Assembly: GCA_013698095.1 (NCBI GenBank)
Contig: JACCVQ010000120.1
Location: 2,350 to 66,349, forward strand
Direction: 5' to 3'
From: Chloroflexota bacterium
GTDB lineage: Bacteria > Chloroflexota > Limnocylindria > Limnocylindrales > CSP1-4
Length of the DNA stretch: 64,000 nucleotides
Part shown: positions 12,296 to 47,638 of the stretch, in pieces
Position numbering within the stretch: the first letter of the stretch is position 1
Layout: the number at the start of each line of letters is the position of its first letter
Made by a program: the position numbers and the translations under genes
Notes under the pieces: generated by a model
The model's input: only the letters and a program-made list of their open reading frames with translations
Told to the model about the DNA's origin: nothing
The model's database searches: none

Positions 12296-13126
12296 GTGAG
12301 CCGGCGCCACCACGGCGGCCGCCCACATCGAACGGGCCAGACGCGGCCGTCCGAGCCCGCCCGTCCGCGCTCGGATGCGGCCCCAAACGTCGCTGATCAG
12401 GCCGCGCCGACCGCCCGGCCCGGCACGCACGGCGAGAGGCCAGCGCCTGGCCCGGGAGCGACCCAGCCAGCAGCCCTCCTCCGAGCCAAGCCCGCCGCCG
12501 AACCGTTCCAGGCAGGTCCAGCGGGTGCCGGAATGGATCGATCCCTGCCCGGTGAGCGGCGCGCCGCCGACCGACGATTCGGCGGTGATCGGGACCGGAC
12601 GGACGAGCGGGCCCATGGCGAACCGATGAGCCAGTCCGCGCCGGGCGACGGGCCCGCCGAATCGCGCCCCGCGCAGATCGCGTCGCCCGTCTCCGAGCCG
12701 ATGAACGGGGCGGGGTCCGCCGCGGTGGCCACCGGGTCTGCCTCGGCCGGCTTGGCCGTTCCCGCCGCCTCCGGCCCCGCTCCCGCGGCTTCCGGGCTCA
12801 CCGACCGCCGGCCCGAGCTCGGCGAGGCACCTGGTTTCAGCGCCGGCCCGGTCTGTACCGCTCCCCAGCTGCGCCGGTTCATCAAGAGCCGACCCTATGT
12901 CCCGATGCATGAGCTCCGTCGCCGCTTCGGGATCAATGGCAGCGAGGACGATGTCACCGGCATCACACTCGGGACGAGCACGATCTTCGTCGGCCTGCCC
13001 GGTCGCGAGGGGTCGCTGCTGGGCGAGCTGCTGCGGGGCGGCGAAGTCGGGTATGAGCTGTCGCTCGACCCGCGGACACCGATCGTGATCGGCCTGTATC
13101 CGATGCGGCCGGTCGCCCGCTCCTGA
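12296..13126 (+). CDS. hypothetical protein (Pro/Ala-rich N-terminus, conserved-looking ~90-aa C-terminal domain); the true start may be the ATG at 12626
   Basis: The C-terminal part (CTAPQLRRFIKSRPYVPMHELRRRFGI...IVIGLYPMRP) looks like a folded domain. The N-terminal part is low complexity. Confidence 0.3.
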   Translation: MSRRHHGGRPHRTGQTRPSEPARPRSDAAPNVADQAAPTARPGTHGERPAPGPGATQPAALLRAKPAAEPFQAGPAGAGMDRSLPGERRAADRRFGGDRDRTDERAHGEPMSQSAPGDGPAESRPAQIASPVSEPMNGAGSAAVATGSASAGLAVPAASGPAPAASGLTDRRPELGEAPGFSAGPVCTAPQLRRFIKSRPYVPMHELRRRFGINGSEDDVTGITLGTSTIFVGLPGREGSLLGELLRGGEVGYELSLDPRTPIVIGLYPMRPVARS

Positions 13127-14303: not shown

Positions 14304-17300
14304 CTAGCCTGCGACCGCCACCGCAAGCGCCGCAAGGGTCGCGTCCGCGGCGACGGTGGCGCCCTTCCGCCGATACAGGTCCAGGGCCTCCTGCAAGGGA
14401 GGCCCTGCCTCGTTGCCACGGCCGCTTCCCGCCAGGATCGCGCCGAGATCGACCAGGGCATCGGCCCGCAGGACCAGGTCGACGGTCCCCGCCGTCAGTT
14501 CGACCGCTTCGCGGGCCAGGGCCTCGGCCTCCGCACCGCGGCCTCGGGCGAGCAGGACACTCGCTTCCGCCTGGCGCCACAGGATCTGGGCCTCGTTGTC
14601 GTCGGGGTCAGCGAGGCTCCGGGTGAGCTCGGCCGAAGCGGCGGCGCCGGCGCCGTCGCCAAGGGCCAAGCGGGCTCGCGAGTGGAGTCCGGCGACAGTT
14701 GAGCGGAAGTAGCGCTCGCCGATCGCCTCGAGGTCGACGAGGTCGCGCGTGAGCGCGCCGTCCGCGGCGACCGGATCGCCGGCCAGGAATGCGATACGCG
14801 ACGTTTCGATCGAGGTGGTCGAGGCCGTGACGCTCGGACCCAGGTCGACCAGGACGCGGCGGCTCTCGATCGCGAGCGACGTCGCCTCCTCGAAGCGGCC
14901 CACCATTGCCAGCAGGAGCCCCCGGATCAGACCGATGACGGCCTCGGCCATGCGGTCCCCGGCCACCTCCTGGGCGAGGGCCTCGCACTCACGGATCGCG
15001 TCCGGCACCGGGGTGTCGCCATGGAGCGAGAGCACGGCGTAGGCGATCGATCCACGGGCAGTCGCCCGGCTGTCCCCGGTCTTCCGGGCGGCGGCGATGA
15101 CTCCCTGGATTGCAACCCTGGCCTCGGTGTAGCGGCCGGCCGTCCCGTGGATGGCCGCGAGCAGCCGCCAGGCGAGAGCGAGCCCGACGTCGTCGTCGGC
15201 GGCCTGGAACCACGCGATGTGCTCCTCGGTTTCCGCAATCGCCGCCGCCGCGTGTCCGACGACCTCCGTGCCGAGGTGGGTGTGGATGCTGCGGGCGACC
15301 GCGGCATGTCGCGCGAGACGTTCGTCGCCGAGCTGATCCGCGGCTGATCGAGCCTGGTCGATCGATGCCAGCGACCCGCCGAAGTCACCGTTCTCGAGGA
15401 GGACCGACCCGAGATCGAGGAGGATCTGGACCCGCGTCGGCGAGTCGGGTCCGAGCAGCATCGATGCTCGGCGGAGGAGGTTTGCCGCCGCCGGAAGGTC
15501 ACCCCGCGAGAACGCGCGCCGGCCGGCGTTGGCGAGCTTCTCCGCGGCACGTTCGGCAATGGACCGGCCCTGGTCATCGAGCGGCCCCAGCTCGGAGCGG
15601 TAGCGAACGGCCTGCTCGAGGTGATAGCCCAGGATCTCCTCGAACTCGGTCTCGCGGCCGCGCTCGCGATTGACCGGCTCGGCCCACTCGACGAACCGCT
15701 CGTGGAGGGTCGCCCGGGCCCGCTTCAGGAGGCTCTGGTAGGCGGCATCGCGGACGAGGATGTGGTGGAAGCGGAAGGTCGGGTCCTCTGCATCGGCCGC
15801 CTGCGGGTGGACGAACTGCTTGCGATCGAGGGCCGTGAGGTGGTCCTCGACGGCCGGCCGGATCGCGTCGGGCACGAGCTGTTCGATGGCCGCTGCCGCG
15901 AACACGAGACCGATGACCGCGGCGGGGTCGACAACTGCCCGTTCCTGGCGGGTCAGCGCGTCGAGGCGGGCAGCCAGGAGGGCCGCGATCGTTGGCGGCA
16001 CGACGACGTCGCCGCCCGGGTCGCGCTCGCGGAGCATGGTGACGATCTGCTCGATGTAGAGCGGGTTGCCCTCGGCCGCGGCGACGACCTTGGCGCGGGT
16101 CTCAGCGGCAAGCTCCACACCGGCCAGGAGCTGTTCGATCATCACTTCGACATCGGCCGGCTGGAGCGGAGTGAGATCGATCCGACCGACGGTCGCCGAA
16201 GCGAGCCATTCGCCGTGGACGTCGGCGATCTCGGGCCGGGCCGAGCAGAGCACGAGGATCGGTGCGTCCCGGACCGAGTCGACGACGTGTTCGAGGAAGT
16301 CGATGAACGTCGCTTCGGCCGAGTGGATGTCGTCGATGAGGATCACGACCGGGCGCGTCGCGGCCTGCGCCTCGAGCAGCTTGCGGGCGCCCCAGAAGAG
16401 CTCAGCCATCGGATGGGCCGAGGTCGACAGGCCGATTGCGGCGGCGACCCGGTCAACGATCGCTTCGCGGTCAGGCTCGTCCTCGGGCAGGAGGGTCGCG
16501 ATCCGGTCGCGGGCAACCTCTGCCGAGTCGTCCTCGCCGATCCGGGCGGCCGAGCGGACGATCTCGACCAGCGGCCAGAAAGTGATCCCGTCACCGTAGG
16601 CCAGACAGCGGCCCCGGAACACGGTCGCCTCGGCCTCGACCGAGGCGAGGAAGTCGGAGATCAGGCGCGTCTTGCCGACGCCGGCATCACCGATGACGGT
16701 CACGAGCCGGGCCAGCCGGGCCGACGAGATGGCCCGGAACGAATCCTGGAGGAGTCCCATCTCCGCGACGCGCCCGACGAACGGCGCGGCCGAGGCCGGC
16801 GTCGCGGTTGGCGCGATCGCCCGGACGTCGATCAGGCGGTAGGCCGGGACCGGCTCCGGCTTGCCCTTCAGCATCAGCTCGACCCGCTCCACCTCGACGT
16901 GGTTGCGGACCAGCTGATATGTCACCTCGCCGATCAGGACCTCGCCGGCCGGCGCGTTCTGCTCGAGCCGGGCAGTCACGTTGACCGCGTCGCCGGTTGC
17001 CAGGTTCTGGTCGGCATTCGGGTCCATGTTGGCCACGATCTCGCCGGTGTTGACTCCGGTCCGATTCGTGATCTGGACGCCGTAGAAGCGCTGGAGATCC
17101 TCGTTCAGGCGGGCCAGCACCTTCTGCATCCCGAACGCCGCCCGGACCGCCCGCAGGGCATCGTCCTCGTGGGCCCGGATCAGGCCGAACACCGCCATGA
17201 TGGCGTCGCCAATGTTCTTCTCGACCTTGCCGCCGTGGCGCTCGATCTCGACTGCCATCGAACTGAAGTAGCGGGCCTTGATCTCGTTCATCGCCTCGGC

Positions 17301-17777
17301 ATCGATCGAGCCCGTGAGGGCGGTCGAGTCCTTGAGGTCGGTGAAGACGAGCGTCACGAACTTGCGGACTTCCTGGGCCGGCAGGATCGGCGTCGTGGCG
17401 GCGGGCCGGGCCGGGGCGGCAGCCAGAAGGCTGCCCAACGGCATCGCATCCCCGGACGCCGCCCGGGACAGGGACACGCCGCTGTCGCCGGGCGTGGACC
17501 GCGACGGGGCCGGCGGCACCGGGTGATGCGGCGCGCTCGAAGGGCCACCGGCCGGACGAGCCGCCGGGCCCCCGTCAGGAGACGTCGGTCCGGGCGTGCC
17601 TGCCGCGAGCGGTGTTCCACAGAACCCGCAGAGCCGGAACTTTGAGGGGTTCTCCTCGCCGCAGCCACCGCACACGATCGTGTCCGGGACCGGCGCGAGC
17701 GACGACCCGCAGAACCCGCACAGGCGGAATCGGGCCGGGTTTTCCTCGCCGCATGACAGGCAGTGGACGGTGTCCAT
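14304..17777 (-). CDS. double zinc-ribbon / class III nucleotidyl cyclase / STAND (AAA) NTPase / TPR-repeat multidomain protein
   Basis: Two CxxC...CxxC ribbons (CLSCGEEN...CGFCGS; CGGCGEEN...CGFCGT). Cyclase motifs (FTDLKDST, NIGDAIMAVFG, NVTARLEQ). Walker A IGDAGVGKTR. Long helical TPR-like C-terminus without an HTH. Start at ATG 17777 (MDTVHC). Confidence 0.85.
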   Translation of the reverse strand: MDTVHCLSCGEENPARFRLCGFCGSSLAPVPDTIVCGGCGEENPSKFRLCGFCGTPLAAGTPGPTSPDGGPAARPAGGPSSAPHHPVPPAPSRSTPGDSGVSLSRAASGDAMPLGSLLAAAPARPAATTPILPAQEVRKFVTLVFTDLKDSTALTGSIDAEAMNEIKARYFSSMAVEIERHGGKVEKNIGDAIMAVFGLIRAHEDDALRAVRAAFGMQKVLARLNEDLQRFYGVQITNRTGVNTGEIVANMDPNADQNLATGDAVNVTARLEQNAPAGEVLIGEVTYQLVRNHVEVERVELMLKGKPEPVPAYRLIDVRAIAPTATPASAAPFVGRVAEMGLLQDSFRAISSARLARLVTVIGDAGVGKTRLISDFLASVEAEATVFRGRCLAYGDGITFWPLVEIVRSAARIGEDDSAEVARDRIATLLPEDEPDREAIVDRVAAAIGLSTSAHPMAELFWGARKLLEAQAATRPVVILIDDIHSAEATFIDFLEHVVDSVRDAPILVLCSARPEIADVHGEWLASATVGRIDLTPLQPADVEVMIEQLLAGVELAAETRAKVVAAAEGNPLYIEQIVTMLRERDPGGDVVVPPTIAALLAARLDALTRQERAVVDPAAVIGLVFAAAAIEQLVPDAIRPAVEDHLTALDRKQFVHPQAADAEDPTFRFHHILVRDAAYQSLLKRARATLHERFVEWAEPVNRERGRETEFEEILGYHLEQAVRYRSELGPLDDQGRSIAERAAEKLANAGRRAFSRGDLPAAANLLRRASMLLGPDSPTRVQILLDLGSVLLENGDFGGSLASIDQARSAADQLGDERLARHAAVARSIHTHLGTEVVGHAAAAIAETEEHIAWFQAADDDVGLALAWRLLAAIHGTAGRYTEARVAIQGVIAAARKTGDSRATARGSIAYAVLSLHGDTPVPDAIRECEALAQEVAGDRMAEAVIGLIRGLLLAMVGRFEEATSLAIESRRVLVDLGPSVTASTTSIETSRIAFLAGDPVAADGALTRDLVDLEAIGERYFRSTVAGLHSRARLALGDGAGAAASAELTRSLADPDDNEAQILWRQAEASVLLARGRGAEAEALAREAVELTAGTVDLVLRADALVDLGAILAGSGRGNEAGPPLQEALDLYRRKGATVAADATLAALAVAVAG

Positions 17778-17878
17778 GTCCTGAGAATACGACGGCGCTC
17801 GATGTTGTCCGCCTCGCACCGCGTACGATGCGCCCGAGCGGCGTCGCCGCGGCCCGCGCGACGGAGGGTGATGTCCAG

Positions 17879-18580
17879 ATGGCGGCGGCCGACGACCTGA
17901 TGGCCCGGGATGCGCTCCGCGCGAGCGGCCTCTTTGCCAAGGCCGACGAGCAGGCCATCGACGCATTGGTTCGGGTCTTCCGGATTCGCCGGTTCCGACG
18001 GGGCGAGACCGTGTTCCACCAGGGCGACCCGGGCGACGCGCTGTTCGTCCTCGCCAGCGGATCGGTCAAGGTTGTCCTGCCGAGCGATGAGGGCGCCGAG
18101 CCCGCCATCGTCGCGATCCTCGGCGCCGGCGAGTTCTTCGGCGAGCTGGCGATCCTCGACGGCGCGCCCCATTCGGCCACGATCGTTGCGGTCGAGGCCT
18201 CCGAGACCCTCGTCCTCCATCGCGACACCTTCCTGGAGCTGATCGACGCCGACCCGGGGCTTCGGCGCGCCCTTCTCGCTGGCCTCGCTGCCGAGATTCG
18301 ACGCCTGACCGGCCACGTCGAGGATCTCCACTTCCTCGACCTGCCGGGCCGGCTCGCATCGCGCATCGTTCGCCTGGCTGCGAGCGCCGGGATCACCAGT
18401 GGTGAGGCCCGGATCGGATGGCCCTACACCCAGTCGGAACTGGCCGGAATGATCGGCGGATCGCGCCAGTCGGTGAACCGCCTGCTCGCCGACCTGGCCG
18501 AGCAGGGTCTCCTCCGACTCGAGCGTGACCTGCTCATCGTCCATGACATCGAGCGTCTCGCCGCAACGGTGGAGCGGTGA
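17879..18580 (+). CDS. Crp/Fnr family transcriptional regulator (cNMP-binding plus HTH)
   Basis: cNMP-binding motif FFGELAIL...HSATIVA and C-terminal HTH SQSELAGMIGGSRQSVNRLLADL. Divergent from the cyclase gene. Confidence 0.85.
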   Translation: MAAADDLMARDALRASGLFAKADEQAIDALVRVFRIRRFRRGETVFHQGDPGDALFVLASGSVKVVLPSDEGAEPAIVAILGAGEFFGELAILDGAPHSATIVAVEASETLVLHRDTFLELIDADPGLRRALLAGLAAEIRRLTGHVEDLHFLDLPGRLASRIVRLAASAGITSGEARIGWPYTQSELAGMIGGSRQSVNRLLADLAEQGLLRLERDLLIVHDIERLAATVER

Positions 18581-19377
18581 CCGGGGCCGGCGCAGCGGAT
18601 CCCCTGATCCCGACGCTCCGGGCGGTCGCCCTCCGGGTCGAGGCGGCCCGTCGTCTCTCGCCGCCGGCCGGCAGCGCGGTCCTGCACTCGATCGTGGAGG
18701 CGACGGTCGCCCTGTTCGATGCCGAGGCCGCCTCGATCGCTCTCCACGACGTGGCGGCCGATCGCCTGGTCTTCACCGTGGCGGCGGGCGACCAGGGCCA
18801 GGGCGTGGTCGGCCTGACGATTGGACCGGCCGAAGGCGTCGCGGGCTACGTCTTCTCGAGTGGTCAGCCGCTCGCTCTCTCGGACGTGGAGCGGGACGCC
18901 CGGTTTGGCCGGACGACGGCGGAGCGGACCGGCTACGTGCCGCGCTCCCTGGTGGCGGTGCCGCTCCTCGACGACGAGGGCATCCTGGGCGTGCTCGAGG
19001 TCCTCGACAAACGGGGCGCAGGCGCGTCCTTCGATCTTCGCGACATCGAGCTCGCGAGCGTGTTCGCCCGCCAGGCCGCGGTCGCGATCCGGAGCAGCCG
19101 CGTCGAGCGCGACACGGCCACGTTGCTCGGCACGGTGCTCGACGCCGTGAACCGCGCCCCACCGGACGACCTCGACGTCGAGCCGATCGTTGCCGCGGCC
19201 GTTGCCGCTCTTGACGGCGACGGGGCCGAGCCGCTCTGGGCGCTGGCCGACCAGGTTGCCCGGATCCGGGCGATCGAGCCGGCCCAGCTCGATCTGGTGC
19301 GCGACCTCCTGGCGGTCCTCGTGACCCGAGCCGAGCGCGGGGGCGCGAGCAGCCGCGCCCGACCGCGCCCCCGATGA
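18577..19377 (+). CDS. GAF domain protein
   Basis: GAF fold pattern (SIALHD...GVAGYVFSSGQPLALSDV...VAVPLLDDEGILGVLEVLD). GTGA overlap with the crp stop. Confidence 0.75.
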   Translation: MTGAGAADPLIPTLRAVALRVEAARRLSPPAGSAVLHSIVEATVALFDAEAASIALHDVAADRLVFTVAAGDQGQGVVGLTIGPAEGVAGYVFSSGQPLALSDVERDARFGRTTAERTGYVPRSLVAVPLLDDEGILGVLEVLDKRGAGASFDLRDIELASVFARQAAVAIRSSRVERDTATLLGTVLDAVNRAPPDDLDVEPIVAAAVAALDGDGAEPLWALADQVARIRAIEPAQLDLVRDLLAVLVTRAERGGASSRARPRPR

Positions 19378-20186
19378 GCGGCCCACTCCCGGCCTGGAGC
19401 GAGCCGTTCGCGGCCGATCATCGAGCGACTCTCGATCGCACCGCGCCGTTCGCGGCCGTCGATCGCGGCTGGGCGTTCGGTGCCGGGGACGGCGCAGGCG
19501 TCGTCGTCGCGGTCGTTGACTCGGGAGTCGAGGGTGGCCATCCCGCGGTCGGCGGCGCGCTGCGCGAGAGCGTCCGGGTCGAGCTCGACGGTGACGACGC
19601 GGTAATCATCGCCGACGATCCGACCGATGCGGTCGGTCACGGCACCGCGTGTGCCGGGATCGTCCATGCGCTCGCTCCGGCGGCGACGCTCCTCTCGGTC
19701 CGCGTCCTCGGGACCGACAATCGGGGCAAGGGGCTTGCGTTCGCGACCGGCCTGGACTGGGCGATCAACAACGGCGCCTCGGTCATCAACCTCAGCCTGT
19801 CGTCGCGGAGCGAGTCGATGTACGCGACCTTCCACGATCTTGCCGATCGGGCGTACTTCGCGAACGCGCTCCTCGTCTGCGCGGCGAACAACGTCGCGGT
19901 TGCGAGCTACCCGTCGCTGTTCGCCGCGGTCGTGTCGGTCGCCGCCCACGACGTTCGCGATCCGGACATCTGGTTCTACAACCCCCATCCCCCGGTCGAG
20001 TTCGGGGCGTACGGCTTGGACGTCGACGTGGCCTGGAAGGACGGCGGCCGGATCGTCGCGACCGGCAACAGCTTCGCGGCGCCGCACATCGCCGGTCTGG
20101 CGGCGCGCATCCGGGCCGCCCATCCGGGGGCATCGCCGTTCGAGATCAAGACGATCCTCGCCGCGACCGCCTCGCCGCCGGCCTGA
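19374..20186 (+). CDS. S8 family (subtilisin-like) serine peptidase, catalytic domain only, no signal peptide
   Basis: Catalytic triad motifs VVDSGV (Asp), HGTACAG (His) and GNSFAAPH (Ser). ATGA overlap with the GAF gene. Confidence 0.8.
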   Translation: MSGPLPAWSEPFAADHRATLDRTAPFAAVDRGWAFGAGDGAGVVVAVVDSGVEGGHPAVGGALRESVRVELDGDDAVIIADDPTDAVGHGTACAGIVHALAPAATLLSVRVLGTDNRGKGLAFATGLDWAINNGASVINLSLSSRSESMYATFHDLADRAYFANALLVCAANNVAVASYPSLFAAVVSVAAHDVRDPDIWFYNPHPPVEFGAYGLDVDVAWKDGGRIVATGNSFAAPHIAGLAARIRAAHPGASPFEIKTILAATASPPA

Positions 20187-20296
20187 ACCGGACAGACCCG
20201 GACCGAGCCGGACAGAGCCGGACAGAGCGACGCCCCGTCCGTGCCCGGGACGGGGCGCTGGGTGAGGGGTCTATCACCCGGAAATGGGCGCAGGTG

Positions 20297-20623
20297 TCAG
20301 CGAACGTGGCCCTCGACATCATCGTCAACCACTTCGCCGCCACCGGACGGCCGGCGGAAGTCGCCACCGGTGCCGGGGAGTCGCGCGGGGACCGGGCCAA
20401 CGCCGTGGCCTTCGACATCGTGCTCGGTGCCGTCGACCTCGCCGCCGCCTGACGGCCGGCGGAAGTCGCCAGCGGTGCCGGGCAGACGCGGCGCGAAGCC
20501 GTCGCCCGACCGGACACGGTGGCCTTCGACGTCACCGGTCACGTTCAAGCCGTCGTTGGTGTTGACCACGGCATCGGGCTCGCCGGTGACCTGTTCACGG
20601 GGCAGGCGAGAGACCTTCTTCAT
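20297..20623 (-). CDS. small acidic Gly/His-rich protein (108 aa) with ~35-aa internal tandem repeats, no Cys and no TM
   Basis: AGGAAAcggtaATG RBS. Repeats RLPGT[AG]GDFRRPSGGGEV and three DVEGH motifs. Seven nucleotide differences between the repeat copies, six synonymous in this frame. Confidence 0.55.
   Translation of the reverse strand: MKKVSRLPREQVTGEPDAVVNTNDGLNVTGDVEGHRVRSGDGFAPRLPGTAGDFRRPSGGGEVDGTEHDVEGHGVGPVPARLPGTGGDFRRPSGGGEVVDDDVEGHVR
20312..20556. repeat. imperfect tandem direct repeat (~105-bp period, about 2.3 copies) inside the small protein gene
   Basis: gacggccggcggaagtcgcca[c/g]cggtgccggg... recurs at 20346 and 20451. Confidence 0.6.
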
Positions 20624-20894
20624 TACCGTTTCCTCCATCGTGACCCCAACCCGGGCATTCCGCCCGACTCGTATCGTCGTGCTACATGGGCCACGATACG
20701 CGCCCCGGCCCGCTACGTGCAGCCGCGGCGTGACGGCCTGCGTGTCAAGTGCGGCACACGGCGCCGGGCGCCCCATCGCGGCAACGATTCGGGCGCCCAG
20801 TGGACCAGGCGCGGCGGAGAGCCGTGCCCGGCGCTCTTTCGGGCGCCCGGTGACCGAACGGACGGAGGAACGGGTGCCGGACGTCGAATCGTGG

Positions 20895-22772
20895 TCAGTA
20901 GCTCTTCGGGAGCGCCTCGGCGCTTGGCCGCGCCGTCCGGAGGTCCTTGAGCGATGCCTGGTCAACACCGGAGAACCGAGGGAGATCGGCGCTGTTCGTC
21001 CGGCTCAGTCGCGCGGTCAGGGTCGAGAGGAACAAGGATCCCAGCTCCGGAACCGCCATGAGCGAGCGAAGGGTGGCCGCCGGGACCTCGACCACGGTCG
21101 TGGCTTCCTCGGCCACCACCGTCGCCGTCCGGCGGCTGCCGGTCAGCGCAGCGATCTCGCCGAAGAAGTCACCGGGCGCCATCGAAGCCAGTGATCGGTA
21201 GCTGCCGTCAAGATCGGGCGTGCCCGCCACGGCTCGGCCGTCCAGGATGAAGTAGGCCGCGTCGCCGACCTCGCCCTCGCCGACGATCGTCGTTCCGGCC
21301 GGGACATCGCGGACGGTCGAGGCCGCCAGCAGCGCGTCGCGCGCGCCGGCATCGATCCGCGCCAGGGCCGGCAGGTGACCGGCCAGCCTGTCGAAGTCGG
21401 CGAGCGTGACCTTTCGGAACGCGACCGCGCCGGCCGGTTGATCCTTCGCCCGGCGGAGGGCCGACATCGCCTGGAGCCATTCCGTGGCCGGCCGGCCGAG
21501 CCCGGGCATCACGGCCGTGACGAGACCGGCGACGACGAGCACGAGCGACGAGACGACCACGAGGATTCGGACGTCGATGATGTCGGCCAGACCGGCGAGG
21601 GCGATGCCGACGAGGAAGACGACATCGCGGGCGACCGCGAACGCCGCGAACACCCGGCCGCGGAGTTCGCGCGGCGTGTTGCGCTGGAGGAGGACGCGCC
21701 GGGTGATCGAGGAGGGAGCGTTGAAGAAGCCCGAGATCGTGACAAGGATGATCGCCACAGGAATGGTCGTCGCAAAGCCGTACGCGACCCCGGCGACGCC
21801 CATGGCGATCGTCGCAACGACGATCCACGATCCCTCCCGGAAGCGATCGGCGAAGCGGGCCATCAGGAGGCTGCCGACCACGAACCCGACCGACGTCATG
21901 CCTTCCTGGATGCCGTACTCGAACTCGGAGGCATGGAGCGCATCGATCGCGAACGGCAGGAGCAGGACGTTCCACAGGCCGAACGAGAAGTAGACCGGCA
22001 CGCCGCTCAGGAAGAGGGATCGCAGGAGCGGCGTGTGGACGAGCGTCGACACGCCTTCTTTCAGGTTCTCGACGACGACCTTGATGCTCGTGTCGCCCTC
22101 GGCCTCGATCTTCCCGACCCCCACGAACAGCAGGAGCGCGGCCGACACGAGGAACGTCACGCCGTCGAGGTAGAACGCCCACTCGATGCTGAATGCGGTC
22201 GCGAGCAATCCCGACAGGGCGAACCCGATCGAGGTCGAGCCGAAGGAGCTGATCATGATCCACGAGTTCGCCGCTGCCAGTTCCTCGTCGGTCGCGACCT
22301 CGGGCAGGAGGGCGTCGTTGGCCGGGTTGAAGAACTGCGAGATCGTGCTCACCGCCGCGACGGCGAGGTACAGCAAGACGATGTTGATGCTGATGAGGAA
22401 CGGGATCGCGAACACGATCCCCGCCCGAACCAGGTCGGCGATGATCATGATCTTGCGCCGGTCGTAGCGGTCCACGAAGACGCCCGCGAATAGCCCGATC
22501 AGGAGCGTCGGGATGGCCGTCGCCGCGAACATCAAGCCGACCGCCAGAGCGGAGCCTGTAGCTGTGAAGACGAGAATGCCGGCGGCGAGGTCGGTCAGGG
22601 CGGTCCCGATCGTCGACACGAGCTGGGCCGACCAGAGAAGCCGGAAGTCGCGCTTCCGGAAGACCGAGAACGGCGACGGAGCGCCGGCGGCGACCGCTCC
22701 GCCGTCAAGCGTCGTCGCCCCGCCGTCCAGGGGCTGCCCGTCGGCGCCACTTCCTGTTGCCGAATCGGTCAC
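20895..22772 (-). CDS. MFS transporter fused to a C-terminal cyclic nucleotide-binding domain
   Basis: Twelve-TM MFS core followed by a cNMP-binding motif (GDFFGEIAALTGSRRTATVVA). GTG start at 22772 with GAGGAAG RBS. Confidence 0.8.
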   Translation of the reverse strand: MTDSATGSGADGQPLDGGATTLDGGAVAAGAPSPFSVFRKRDFRLLWSAQLVSTIGTALTDLAAGILVFTATGSALAVGLMFAATAIPTLLIGLFAGVFVDRYDRRKIMIIADLVRAGIVFAIPFLISINIVLLYLAVAAVSTISQFFNPANDALLPEVATDEELAAANSWIMISSFGSTSIGFALSGLLATAFSIEWAFYLDGVTFLVSAALLLFVGVGKIEAEGDTSIKVVVENLKEGVSTLVHTPLLRSLFLSGVPVYFSFGLWNVLLLPFAIDALHASEFEYGIQEGMTSVGFVVGSLLMARFADRFREGSWIVVATIAMGVAGVAYGFATTIPVAIILVTISGFFNAPSSITRRVLLQRNTPRELRGRVFAAFAVARDVVFLVGIALAGLADIIDVRILVVVSSLVLVVAGLVTAVMPGLGRPATEWLQAMSALRRAKDQPAGAVAFRKVTLADFDRLAGHLPALARIDAGARDALLAASTVRDVPAGTTIVGEGEVGDAAYFILDGRAVAGTPDLDGSYRSLASMAPGDFFGEIAALTGSRRTATVVAEEATTVVEVPAATLRSLMAVPELGSLFLSTLTARLSRTNSADLPRFSGVDQASLKDLRTARPSAEALPKSY

Positions 22773-22904
22773 GGAATCGCTTCCTCTCAGGGCCGCTCGG
22801 TTGGCGCCGCCCGCATGCGTCGGTACCCCGGTTGACTGCGGCCGAGTGTACCGAACGAGACAGGCCACGGCCGGCCGACTGCGGCACTCGCTCCAGCGGG
22901 CCCG

Positions 22905-24216: not shown

Positions 24217-24218
<2 letters not shown>
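24202..24218. promoter_or_regulatory. perfect 17-bp palindrome ATACTCCC-C-GGGAGTAT overlapping the copA start codon (candidate CsoR-like operator)
   Basis: Eight-bp arms around a central C, with the ATG at 24217 inside the right arm. Confidence 0.4.
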
Positions 24219-26930
<2,712 letters not shown>

Positions 26931-26934
<4 letters not shown>

Positions 26935-31864: not shown

Positions 31865-32185
31865 CGGTCGCGGCAAGAGCGGCTTGCAGCGCTGGCTCGC
31901 CGGGTGGACTGATCCCTGTCAGCGCCCAGCGGCACCAGAGAGACCCATGGACGCCAACCTGCGCATCGCCCAGCAGTCCGGATCGAGCACCGTCACAGCG
32001 CCGGCCGCTGGTCGCCGCTCGAGCGGATCCACCGCGACTGTGCCGCCCACGACAGCGAGCGGTCGTGGATCCGGAAGACGATCTTCCGCTGCTCGGGCTG
32101 CGCCGAGAACGTGACGGTCACCGTCGGCGACGAGGACGAGGTGCCGTCACCCGGCCCAGACGACCTGAGCGCCTTCGCTCCGCGG

Positions 32186-46799: not shown

Positions 46800-47638
46800 T
46801 CGCCAGGCGAGGCGCGGTCGGGCGGCTCTGGAGCCGCCGGAGGCGAGTCGGTGCAGCGGGGCAACTCGGACCGTTGGCTGGCGCGAAGTGGTACTCCCGT
46901 TGGATGTCAGGCCGGGTCCCGCTCAGCCATCTTCGGAACGAGGACATCCGTCCTCCGCCGACGCCACCGTCCAGGGCAAACCCGTCGTGAGGCTGGGACG
47001 CAAAGCCAGGGATCTCCGATGGGAGACCGCCCGGCCGCCGGGACGTCGACGACGAGGACTCATAAGGAGTCGATCATCCGATGAAGACGAAACTGGCGTT
47101 CTTCAGGGGCAAGTCCTTCCGCGCCTTGTTCACCCTGTCCTCCCTGGCCAGCGCCGCCCTGGTGCTCGAGGCTGCGCAGCGCTGGCATTGAGCCGATCGG
47201 CGTCCACGGCGCCGGCGATGGATTGACGGGACCGTCGGGCGACCGGCGGTCTCGTGGTGTCTGGCGCCGTCGTCGACACCGGGACGCCCGGTCGCGTGAA
47301 CGAATCGGTGCGGTGCAGCTAGTTGCGCGATCACGGGGCGCCTCGTAGACTGCGCGGACCAGCCGGCTCGGCCGGAAATGTTCGGGAGATCGTCTTGGGT
47401 CTGTTCGATGGCCGGAATCGACGCCACGTGGCAATCGCGATCCGCGCGGATGGCCGCCGTGTCCAGATTCCGCTGAACGACTCCGGGCTGTCGGACGGCT
47501 CGCCTCTCGGTCTTCTTCGCTCCCTCGTGGTCGGGCTTGAGAGCCTTCTCGGGCTTCTCATTACCGGCTCCCGGCGGGAGAACGGAGGCGATCGGAGGAA
47601 CGGGCGCTAGGCGCCAAGAACCACCGAGAAACCAACGG

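Follow-up and report, generated by a model that had tools for sequence, protein, structure and literature searches.

A small DVEGH-repeat protein gene with a putative Crp/FNR-type operator of its own accompanies a crp-GAF-S8 operon in Limnocylindria-type Chloroflexota

We analysed a small open reading frame (ORF) in a 64,000-nucleotide stretch of DNA from a Chloroflexota bacterium (hereafter the window; G+C content about 70%). The ORF encodes a product of 108 amino acids (aa) that starts with MKKVSRLPREQ, ends with DVEGHVR and reads MKKVSRLPREQVTGEPDAVVNTNDGLNVTGDVEGHRVRSGDGFAPRLPGTAGDFRRPSGGGEVDGTEHDVEGHGVGPVPARLPGTGGDFRRPSGGGEVVDDDVEGHVR in full. Its layout, termed type A here, comprises an N-terminal MKKxxRLPRE segment, three DVEGH motifs (aa 31, 69 and 102) and two copies of RLPGT[AG]GDFRRPSGGGE (aa 46 and 81). 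The gene and the elements around it are as follows.

20297..20623, minus strand: DVEGH-repeat protein gene of type A, 108 aa, product predicted to be intrinsically disordered (from the ORF and its orthologues)
20632..20636, minus strand: Shine-Dalgarno sequence GGAGG, 8 nt 5' of the ATG, conserved in 13 of 13 aligned orthologous loci
20693..20698, minus strand: -10-like hexamer TATCGT (TAnnnT in the orthologues), 44 nt downstream of the dyad, putative promoter with a transcription start predicted about 7 nt after 20693
20730..20758, minus strand: putative bipartite operator TGTGCCGCACTTGACA-N8-GTCAC, containing a 16-bp Crp/FNR-type dyad at 20743-20758 (from the orthologue alignment)
20230..20258, minus strand: GC-rich hairpin with a stem of 11-12 bp, about 40 nt past the stop codon of the small gene, terminator-like without a U-tract (fold z = -1.85)

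At the DNA level, a direct repeat of 55 nt (89% identical, spacing 105 nt, 20331-20385 and 20436-20490) corresponds to protein units of 35 aa and confirms the tandem repeats of about 35 aa that an earlier note on this DNA had described. Tandem Repeats Finder did not report the 105-nt repeat, which was detected instead as a dispersed direct repeat. The product is acidic (pI 5.1) and Gly-rich (G 20%, V 14%, R 10%, D 10%), as that note had stated, whereas its description as His-rich was overstated: the four His residues, one in each DVEGH motif and one at residue 68, make up 3.7%. Sequence analysis of the protein revealed no Cys, no transmembrane segment and no signal peptide, with a highest 19-residue hydropathy of -0.18; these properties, like the good ribosome-binding site, had been noted before and hold.

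Such an ORF might have arisen by chance in DNA of 70% GC, in which many long ORFs arise, or it might be the shadow of a long plus-strand ORF (20241..21194, 317 aa) that runs antisense to it and has third codon positions in common with it. The earlier note had argued for the minus frame from the two repeat cores (aa 46-63 and 81-98, 18 codons), which differ at 7 nucleotides, six of them synonymous in the minus frame and one not (A51/G86). This count stands, but the differences are for the most part not non-synonymous in the plus frame as had been claimed, as 5 of the 7 are silent in the frame of the 317-aa ORF (0 of 7 in the remaining two plus frames). Because of these silent differences, the comparison of the two repeats alone does not decide the frame. 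The orthologues argue clearly for the minus strand. A sequence search retrieved 169 homologues with conserved length, start and Shine-Dalgarno sequence. The sense frame is open in all 13 orthologous DNA sequences that were aligned, while stops break each antisense frame in five or more of them and that of the 317-aa plus-strand ORF in 10; the start codon and GGAGG are conserved in the same alignment. More than one synonymous codon occurs in 21 of the 22 invariant amino-acid columns, and the variation falls on third positions (21/22) and hardly ever on first or second positions (1/44). Pairwise ratios of nonsynonymous to synonymous substitution rates (dN/dS), a check that the earlier note had proposed, ranged from 0.15 to 0.8 with a median of 0.41, which reflects near-invariant motifs set in freely varying linkers. 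As far as sequence can tell, then, the small ORF genuinely codes for a protein, on which selection acts in the minus frame, as had been proposed. The opposite reading is already refuted to the same extent, and we consider the chance that it is correct to be negligible.

The homologues are 71-133 aa long and vary in repeat number; the earlier note had named their absence as grounds for giving up the gene. All are unnamed, those with a named source derive from Chloroflexota or Candidatus Limnocylindrales metagenome-assembled genomes (MAGs), and one of them, MBA2719340.1 ('hypothetical protein', Chloroflexi MAG), is 100% identical to the window protein. When 1.84 billion representative proteins were searched exhaustively with a profile, only 62 clusters came up. 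Long profile matches (an AHNAK-like protein of 6481 aa and others) were rejected as low-complexity artefacts, and matches of 200-235 aa (P0134, P0143, P0150 and P0167) were judged by eye to be gene calls overrunning the small ORF into out-of-frame sequence. No family in Pfam-A or NCBIfam matched the window protein above its curated cutoff. Literature searches on DVEGH returned only unrelated peptides, and those on GAF, subtilisin and cAMP in combination returned nothing relevant.

Close relatives keep the N-terminus M-[KG]-K-x-x-R-L-P-[RH]-E, DVEGH, PGTGGD and RRPSGGGE. In distant orthologues at the same chromosomal position everything is replaced except for an acidic run followed by DVEGH; one of them carries REGFSKPAREDEDVEGHGSQL five times over (locus L078), and others are forms with an ending of the type ...R-x-P/S-S-x-x-G-E (L064, L075, L081 and L096). 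The conserved unit is thus the DVEGH motif and not the RLPGTGGDFRRPSGGGE core that the earlier note had placed at the centre of the repeat. Across 285 family proteins we counted 642 DVEGH sites, including 580 exact matches. Conservation reaches 96% or more at all five positions, V and G included, with D or E at -1 and -2 and a mostly hydrophobic residue at +2, so that the invariant family element is [ED]-D-D-V-E-G-H while the spacers vary freely. Copy number is 1-5 per catalogued protein, and 6-7 in one ORF of a second kind (type B, described below; locus L081). Val and Gly vary as little as Asp, Glu and His, and DVEGH therefore points to a peptide-recognition motif rather than to a bare metal-chelating site. 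AlphaFold2, run with a 33-sequence alignment, gave the 108-aa protein a mean predicted local distance difference test score of 54.7, a predicted TM score of 0.10 and no secondary structure; the product is therefore predicted to be intrinsically disordered.

The small gene faces three genes that overlap consecutively by 4 nt each (the stop of one over the start of the next) and that are predicted from this arrangement to form a translationally coupled crp-GAF-S8 operon. These and the remaining neighbours are listed below.

17879..18580, plus strand: Crp/FNR-family regulator, 233 aa, recognition helix R-Q-S-V-N-R, candidate operator binder
18577..19377, plus strand: GAF-domain protein, 266 aa
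19374..20186, plus strand: cytoplasmic S8 (subtilisin-family) peptidase, 270 aa, proposed partner of the small protein
20895..22868, minus strand: MFS permease with a C-terminal domain for binding cyclic nucleoside monophosphates (cNMP), upstream of the small gene, start codon uncertain
14304-17966, minus strand: large protein with a double zinc-ribbon, adenylate/guanylate cyclase, AAA_16 and TPR, divergent from crp

As listed, the 1220-aa ORF of the cyclase/AAA/TPR protein overlaps crp, so its true start probably lies further in. The same gene stands directly downstream of S8 and on its strand in five other loci (L049, L066, L071, L080 and L091). The S8 gene is convergent with the small gene, and the MFS-cNMP permease and an MGMT gene lie upstream on the minus strand; the neighbours are thus those reported in the earlier note, which had named a convergent intracellular S8 peptidase and, on the same strand upstream, an MFS permease.

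To follow this linkage we used several anchors. All 12 protein-anchored look-ups, including very divergent members of the small-gene family (E = 3e-8 and 6e-4), gave the order MGMT, (MFS-cNMP), small gene, facing S8-GAF-Crp. A scan of genome contigs with a tightened alignment returned 6 loci only. Because general synteny is high in this clade, S8 was also used as an anchor, and a metagenome scan gave 80 further loci, in which the pairing of GAF and S8 is near-universal. A DVEGH gene stands beside crp-GAF-S8 in all 34 loci that are readable on both flanks: 22 have type A only (downstream), 6 type B only (upstream of crp), 6 both and none neither. About 0.007 hits per flank are expected by chance, given a single other occurrence of the loose motif when all six frames of the window are translated. 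The linkage persists through relocation of the gene and replacement of everything but the motif. The association with the S8 peptidase that the earlier note had pointed out is therefore persistent and survives changes in gene order; from the conserved neighbourhood, the real partners of the small gene appear to be the whole crp-GAF-S8 operon.

Type B was found in several loci without the convergent small gene, where it lies upstream of crp on the same strand. These proteins have the form M-x-SKK..., (x-A-T-E-D-D-V-E-G-H-x)n and a basic C-terminal tail, MNPxLARELxRARERDIQR...KK. The family is uncurated, comprises about 464 sequence clusters, all 'hypothetical', and does not occur in the window. 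The type B genes located are these:

L100:9001-9333, plus strand
L049:2357-2641
L055:1798-2460
L077:3077-3496
L081:2330-2971

L100, a contig of 1.04 Mb, carries both types, and GFSK[SA][KR] and EDDVEGH units are common to its two proteins. In a profile-profile comparison of type A with type B, a DDVEGH stretch of 10 columns alone aligned (84% probability), and common ancestry beyond the motif is not established. When relatives of both types were scanned, 0 curated families were found; the Pfam matches were at chance level and far below cutoff (RRM_MARF1, E=0.1; HEAT_EF3_GNC1, E=0.25). No curated family, annotation or paper that we found covers the DVEGH proteins or the module. They constitute an undescribed and small family seen in Limnocylindria-type Chloroflexota only. 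Some loci have another hypothetical gene upstream of crp (CTAPQLRRFIKSRPYVPMHELRRRFGI...), which was set apart as a family of its own without DVEGH. This conserved hypothetical, with the core CTAPQLRRFIKSRPYVPMHELRRRFGI...GLYPMRPV, has no Pfam hit and is found in lineages without the cyclase at that position:

L007:10839-11063, minus strand, upstream of crp
L011:10852-11538, minus strand, upstream of crp
L100:8242-8862, plus strand, upstream of crp

The upstream region of the small gene contains a putative Crp/FNR-type operator of its own, which the earlier note had overlooked. Promoter elements were derived from an alignment of the 200 nt upstream of 13 orthologues; a scan for the sigma-70 consensus found no promoter. 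The order in all 13 is TGTGcCGCAgTTGACA (20743-20758), GTC 8-9 nt on, TAnnnT, CGGGGTCA and the Shine-Dalgarno sequence. The dyad TGTGCCGCACTTGACA is conserved in the 13 loci and has Crp/FNR-type geometry upstream of the -10-like element, comparable to that of operators such as TGTGA-N6-TCACA of CRP/HcpR and TGTCGGCnnGCCGACA of CooA (PMC545781). The dyad with its GTC[GA]C element is present in a single copy in the window. Both types of DVEGH gene carry the same palindrome, TGTs-N8-sACA, in their promoters, and in L100 about 30 nt of the element are shared nearly verbatim between the type A and type B promoters, TGTCAGGTACATGACTCCGGGnnnGTCGCA. In the fetched loci, all copies of the bipartite element but one (L081, position 11229, far from any such gene) closely precede a type A or type B gene, while shuffled sequences gave 0.095 hits. 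An Rfam scan of the whole window returned nothing near the small-gene locus, so the conserved element corresponds to no known RNA, and the 5' untranslated region of the small gene folds no better than its shuffles (z = -0.45). Two more TGTG-N8-SACA dyads in the window, at 12952-12967 (minus strand) and 32039-32054 (plus strand), occur at chance frequency and without a downstream GTC[GA]C.

The regulator encoded in the operon is nearest to Mycobacterium tuberculosis CRP and GlxR (E = 4e-39), with R-Q-[ST]-V-N-R as its recognition helix in place of the R-E-T-V-N-K of the aligned M. tuberculosis CRP. The adjacent Crp-family protein probably binds the dyad and controls the DVEGH genes. At the other end of the gene, the hairpin at 20230..20258 sits between the convergent small gene and S8 gene; a consensus scan found no canonical terminator. 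A 10-nt tandem repeat, GCCGGACAGA x 5.2, at 20177-20228 of the window extends over the last part of the S8 gene and the spacer that precedes the shared hairpin.

PF00082 covers residues 40-266 of the 270-aa S8 peptidase, which has no other domain, no signal peptide and no I9 pro-domain and aligns with mature subtilisin BPN' from residue 22. The catalytic triad D48/H89/S233 is intact and invariant, and identity is 79-91% across the aligned full-length orthologues (69% for the partial L018), compared with about 50-80% for the small protein. Three invariant basic residues, R117, K119 and R145, correspond to BPN' positions 101, 103 and 129 on the two substrate-clamping strands (DNRGKGLAF against DGSGQYSWI at BPN' 99-107, SLSSRSE against SLGGPSG at BPN' 125-131). 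The peptidase scored below the cutoffs of the cyanobactin PatA/PatG model TIGR03895 (31.9 bits, cutoff 421), of QhpE NF049966 (106 bits, cutoff 165) and of mycosin TIGR03921 (112 bits, cutoff 279). The GAF domain of the second operon protein resembles the cNMP-binding GAFs of PDE2/5 and CyaB2. In L009, GAF and S8 are joined in a single ORF of 557 aa (L009:8546-10219, minus strand), which could be a true fusion or the result of a sequencing error at the stop codon.

Subtilisins prefer hydrophobic residues at P4 and small ones at P2. Since V would fit the hydrophobic P4 and G the small P2, it is plausible that VEGH docks as P4-P1 with the acidic run facing R117, K119 and R145. This leads to the explanation that we favour, tentatively and as possible rather than probable: the disordered, Crp-induced DVEGH protein would serve the GAF-coupled cytoplasmic subtilase as a dedicated multivalent ligand, most likely as its substrate and alternatively as a pseudo-substrate. 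The small gene would be transcribed from its own promoter after the adjacent regulator had bound the dyad and induced expression. Subtilase activity would be coupled to the GAF sensor protein, and the [ED]-D-D-V-E-G-H motifs would enter the protease cleft in the manner just described. S8 may then cut after each DVEGH, releasing pieces of about 35 aa; instead of being cut, the small protein may occupy the enzyme as a pseudo-substrate. Regulator binding, interaction with S8, the cleavage site and any physiological output are what we infer here from the arrangement of genes and motifs. A stronger version, which we regard as quite unlikely, likens the module to a prohormone convertase: Crp would induce DVEGH pro-proteins, and a GAF-controlled cytoplasmic subtilase would cut them after each DVEGH. 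Type A would yield pieces of about 35 aa and type B a basic helical tail, and these peptides would serve as effectors inside the cell or, in some lineages, after export. If true, second-messenger signalling would be converted into regulated release of peptides by proteolysis.

Several observations weigh against our favoured explanation. Both the placing of VEGH at P4-P1 and the part given to the basic cleft residues derive from textbook subtilisin geometry. Being convergent, the small gene and S8 are not co-transcribed. All loci belong to one clade with extensive synteny, in which Cu-ATPase, MGMT and POR genes are also conserved, so the 34 loci are not independent. Type A is missing from nine loci in which the sequence downstream of S8 is available and the upstream flank unreadable; one of these nine, L095, does contain a frameshifted type A ORF that the filter of our count missed. 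In the regulator, the cNMP phosphate-binding cassette (residues ~95-100) reads G-A-P-H-S-A-T, with His replacing the conserved Arg. This His is common to about 40 Crp orthologues, more distant ones retaining R-S-A-T, and the effector may be other than cAMP; what points to cyclic nucleotides is the nearby cyclase together with the canonical cNMP domain of the MFS permease. No NKFDE signature was seen in the GAF domain in our own reading of the sequence. Finally, some relatives have extra His residues beside the motif (GHGFH, GHGGHSH), which would suit metal binding.

The same linkage, motif and operator underlie the view that the small protein is not cleaved but regulates, as a multivalent pseudo-substrate inhibitor or scaffold that, like calpastatin, would restrain GAF-S8 until a signal arrives. 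A restraint acting in trans would be sensible for an S8 enzyme with neither an I9 pro-domain nor the LIPY/F motif of intracellular subtilisin proteases (ISPs), and variable repeat number is expected of a stoichiometric binder. Computationally it is inseparable from the substrate model. Family scans found no similarity to known protease inhibitors, and VEGH looks like an acceptable rather than a cleavage-resistant subtilisin substrate; we consider it unlikely. The earlier note had compared the locus to the precursor, protease and exporter layout of processed-peptide systems, in which S8 would cut a multi-core precursor and the MFS-cNMP permease would export the products as signals or antimicrobials. 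Tandem conserved units, the conserved N-terminal segment and the adjacent S8 would fit, as would a permease that occurs in most loci, belongs to the MFS_3/EntS-like efflux group and weakly matches a bacteriocin-transport-associated cNMP protein (38.8 bits, cutoff 161). The link to the protease stands, but the exporter does not: at least six loci that keep the small gene (L009, L015, L019, L021, L046 and L056) have no permease between it and MGMT, and by this distribution it would be a frequent neighbour and no core partner or dedicated exporter. Type B genes, upstream of crp, are distant from any permease. The small protein shows no sign of secretion, and the neighbours in at least 12 loci (Crp, GAF, S8, MFS-cNMP, MGMT, Cu-ATPase and adenylate cyclase) include no peptide-modification enzyme such as a cyclodehydratase, radical SAM enzyme or LanM; the scores against PatA/PatG and QhpE also speak against this layout. 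In form, the conserved N-terminus and the invariant DVEGH between variable segments would agree with a leader followed by repeated cores. The putative 'core' PGTGGDFRRPSGGGE is wholly replaced in relatives while the 'spacer' DVEGH is invariant. We consider an exported peptide very unlikely.

Two further explanations would leave the protease aside or in a secondary role. A disordered metal-binding protein, whose D-x-E-x-H and acidic runs would chelate Cu, Ni or Zn for buffering or as a chaperone, with a purely regulatory link to the protease, is suggested by the invariant Asp, Glu and His, by the additional His residues mentioned above and by a Cu-type P-type ATPase (HMA and cupredoxin domains) 3.6 kb away in conserved synteny. 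We find it doubtful, because Val and Gly, which metal binding does not need, are equally invariant; the His content is low compared with the high, clustered His of Hpn-like proteins; type B genes lie across the operon from the ATPase; and the operator is of the Crp/FNR and not of a metal-sensor type. There is a modest chance that the protein is a protectant of the hydrophilin or late embryogenesis abundant type, or otherwise unrelated to the protease, and that the adjacency is gene order inherited within one clade. The product is highly hydrophilic, Gly-rich and predicted to be disordered, its hosts are soil bacteria, and the whole region is collinear across relatives. However, inherited order leaves a differently built DVEGH gene on the other side of the operon unexplained, nor does it account for type B in loci without type A or for one operator serving both, and bulk protectants do not usually keep so strict a motif of 7 residues.

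The module resembles several known systems and is a member of none of them. Bacillus and Planococcus ISPs are likewise cytoplasmic S8 enzymes without signal peptide or I9 pro-domain that need restraint, and the Pro-centred N-terminal segment near their residues 6-9 recalls R-L-P-[RH] in the small protein and P-L-P-A-W in S8. Identity with the ISP LIPY/F element was nevertheless ruled out, as neither the N-terminus of S8 (MSGPLPAWSEPF) nor RLP[RH]E of the small protein fits the ISP motif [LVI]-[IFLV]-P-[YFH] (PMC6220982). Unlike in ISPs, the candidate ligand has a gene of its own and carries repeated DVEGH motifs, and a GAF protein, coupled or fused, and a Crp regulator go with the protease. 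Yeast alpha-factor with Kex2 and cyanobactin PatE with PatA/PatG also combine a small repeat precursor, an invariant recognition motif and a subtilisin-family enzyme alongside. Here, in contrast, there is no secretory route, macrocyclase or heterocyclase, the motif is acidic (DDVEGH) and not dibasic, the 'cores' between motifs are unconserved across the family, the exporter is dispensable and S8 falls far below the PatA/PatG model.

With calpain and calpastatin the module would share a signal-gated intracellular protease and a dedicated disordered multi-repeat partner with short conserved motifs. The analogy is purely functional: the two proteases belong to unrelated clans (cysteine versus serine), the systems show no similarity in sequence, and inhibition is hypothetical here. 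Pup and UBact are small disordered acidic proteins too, 18 of 285 family members end in GGE, and the internal RRPSGGGE recalls the GG[QE] of Pup. A modifier of this kind was rejected: EGHVR is the C-terminus of the window protein, PafA/Dop ligase and proteasome genes are absent within +/-8 kb in every locus, and no sequence match was found. Finally, the 233-aa regulator and the 16-bp dyad of the same geometry recall CRP/FNR regulons (M. tuberculosis CRP, GlxR and CooA), but the recognition helix has Gln for Glu and the pocket His for the phosphate-binding Arg. The operator differs from CRP/FNR operators in its extra GTC[GA]C 8-9 nt downstream, and in the sequence examined the regulon seemingly consists of DVEGH genes only.

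Limnocylindria are abundant, uncultured Chloroflexota of soil and freshwater, and to our knowledge almost nothing has been reported on their signalling. Nor do we know of dedicated substrates or regulators for more than a very few bacterial intracellular subtilases, if any. If true, coupling a sensor to a subtilase that has a disordered multi-motif ligand of its own would be a new wiring of small-molecule sensing to proteolysis. The locus offers a concrete set of partners, namely a Crp-type regulator with a dedicated operator, a GAF sensor and a cytoplasmic subtilase; as all components are small and soluble, the hypothesis is approachable with recombinant proteins and without culturing. Types A (about 170 clusters) and B (about 460 clusters) together represent an uncurated small-protein family annotated as 'hypothetical' throughout.

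Some features further from the small gene were also recorded. The heavy-metal P-type ATPase of the window (905 aa, 24217-26934, plus strand) has orthologues with a C-terminal cupredoxin domain besides HMA, and two small unannotated ORFs (77-102 aa) lie between the P-type ATPase and MGMT in relatives. The sole Rfam match in the window is a c-di-GMP-I riboswitch aptamer at 46965-47042 on the plus strand (RF01051, 53.5 bits, E = 1.2e-7).

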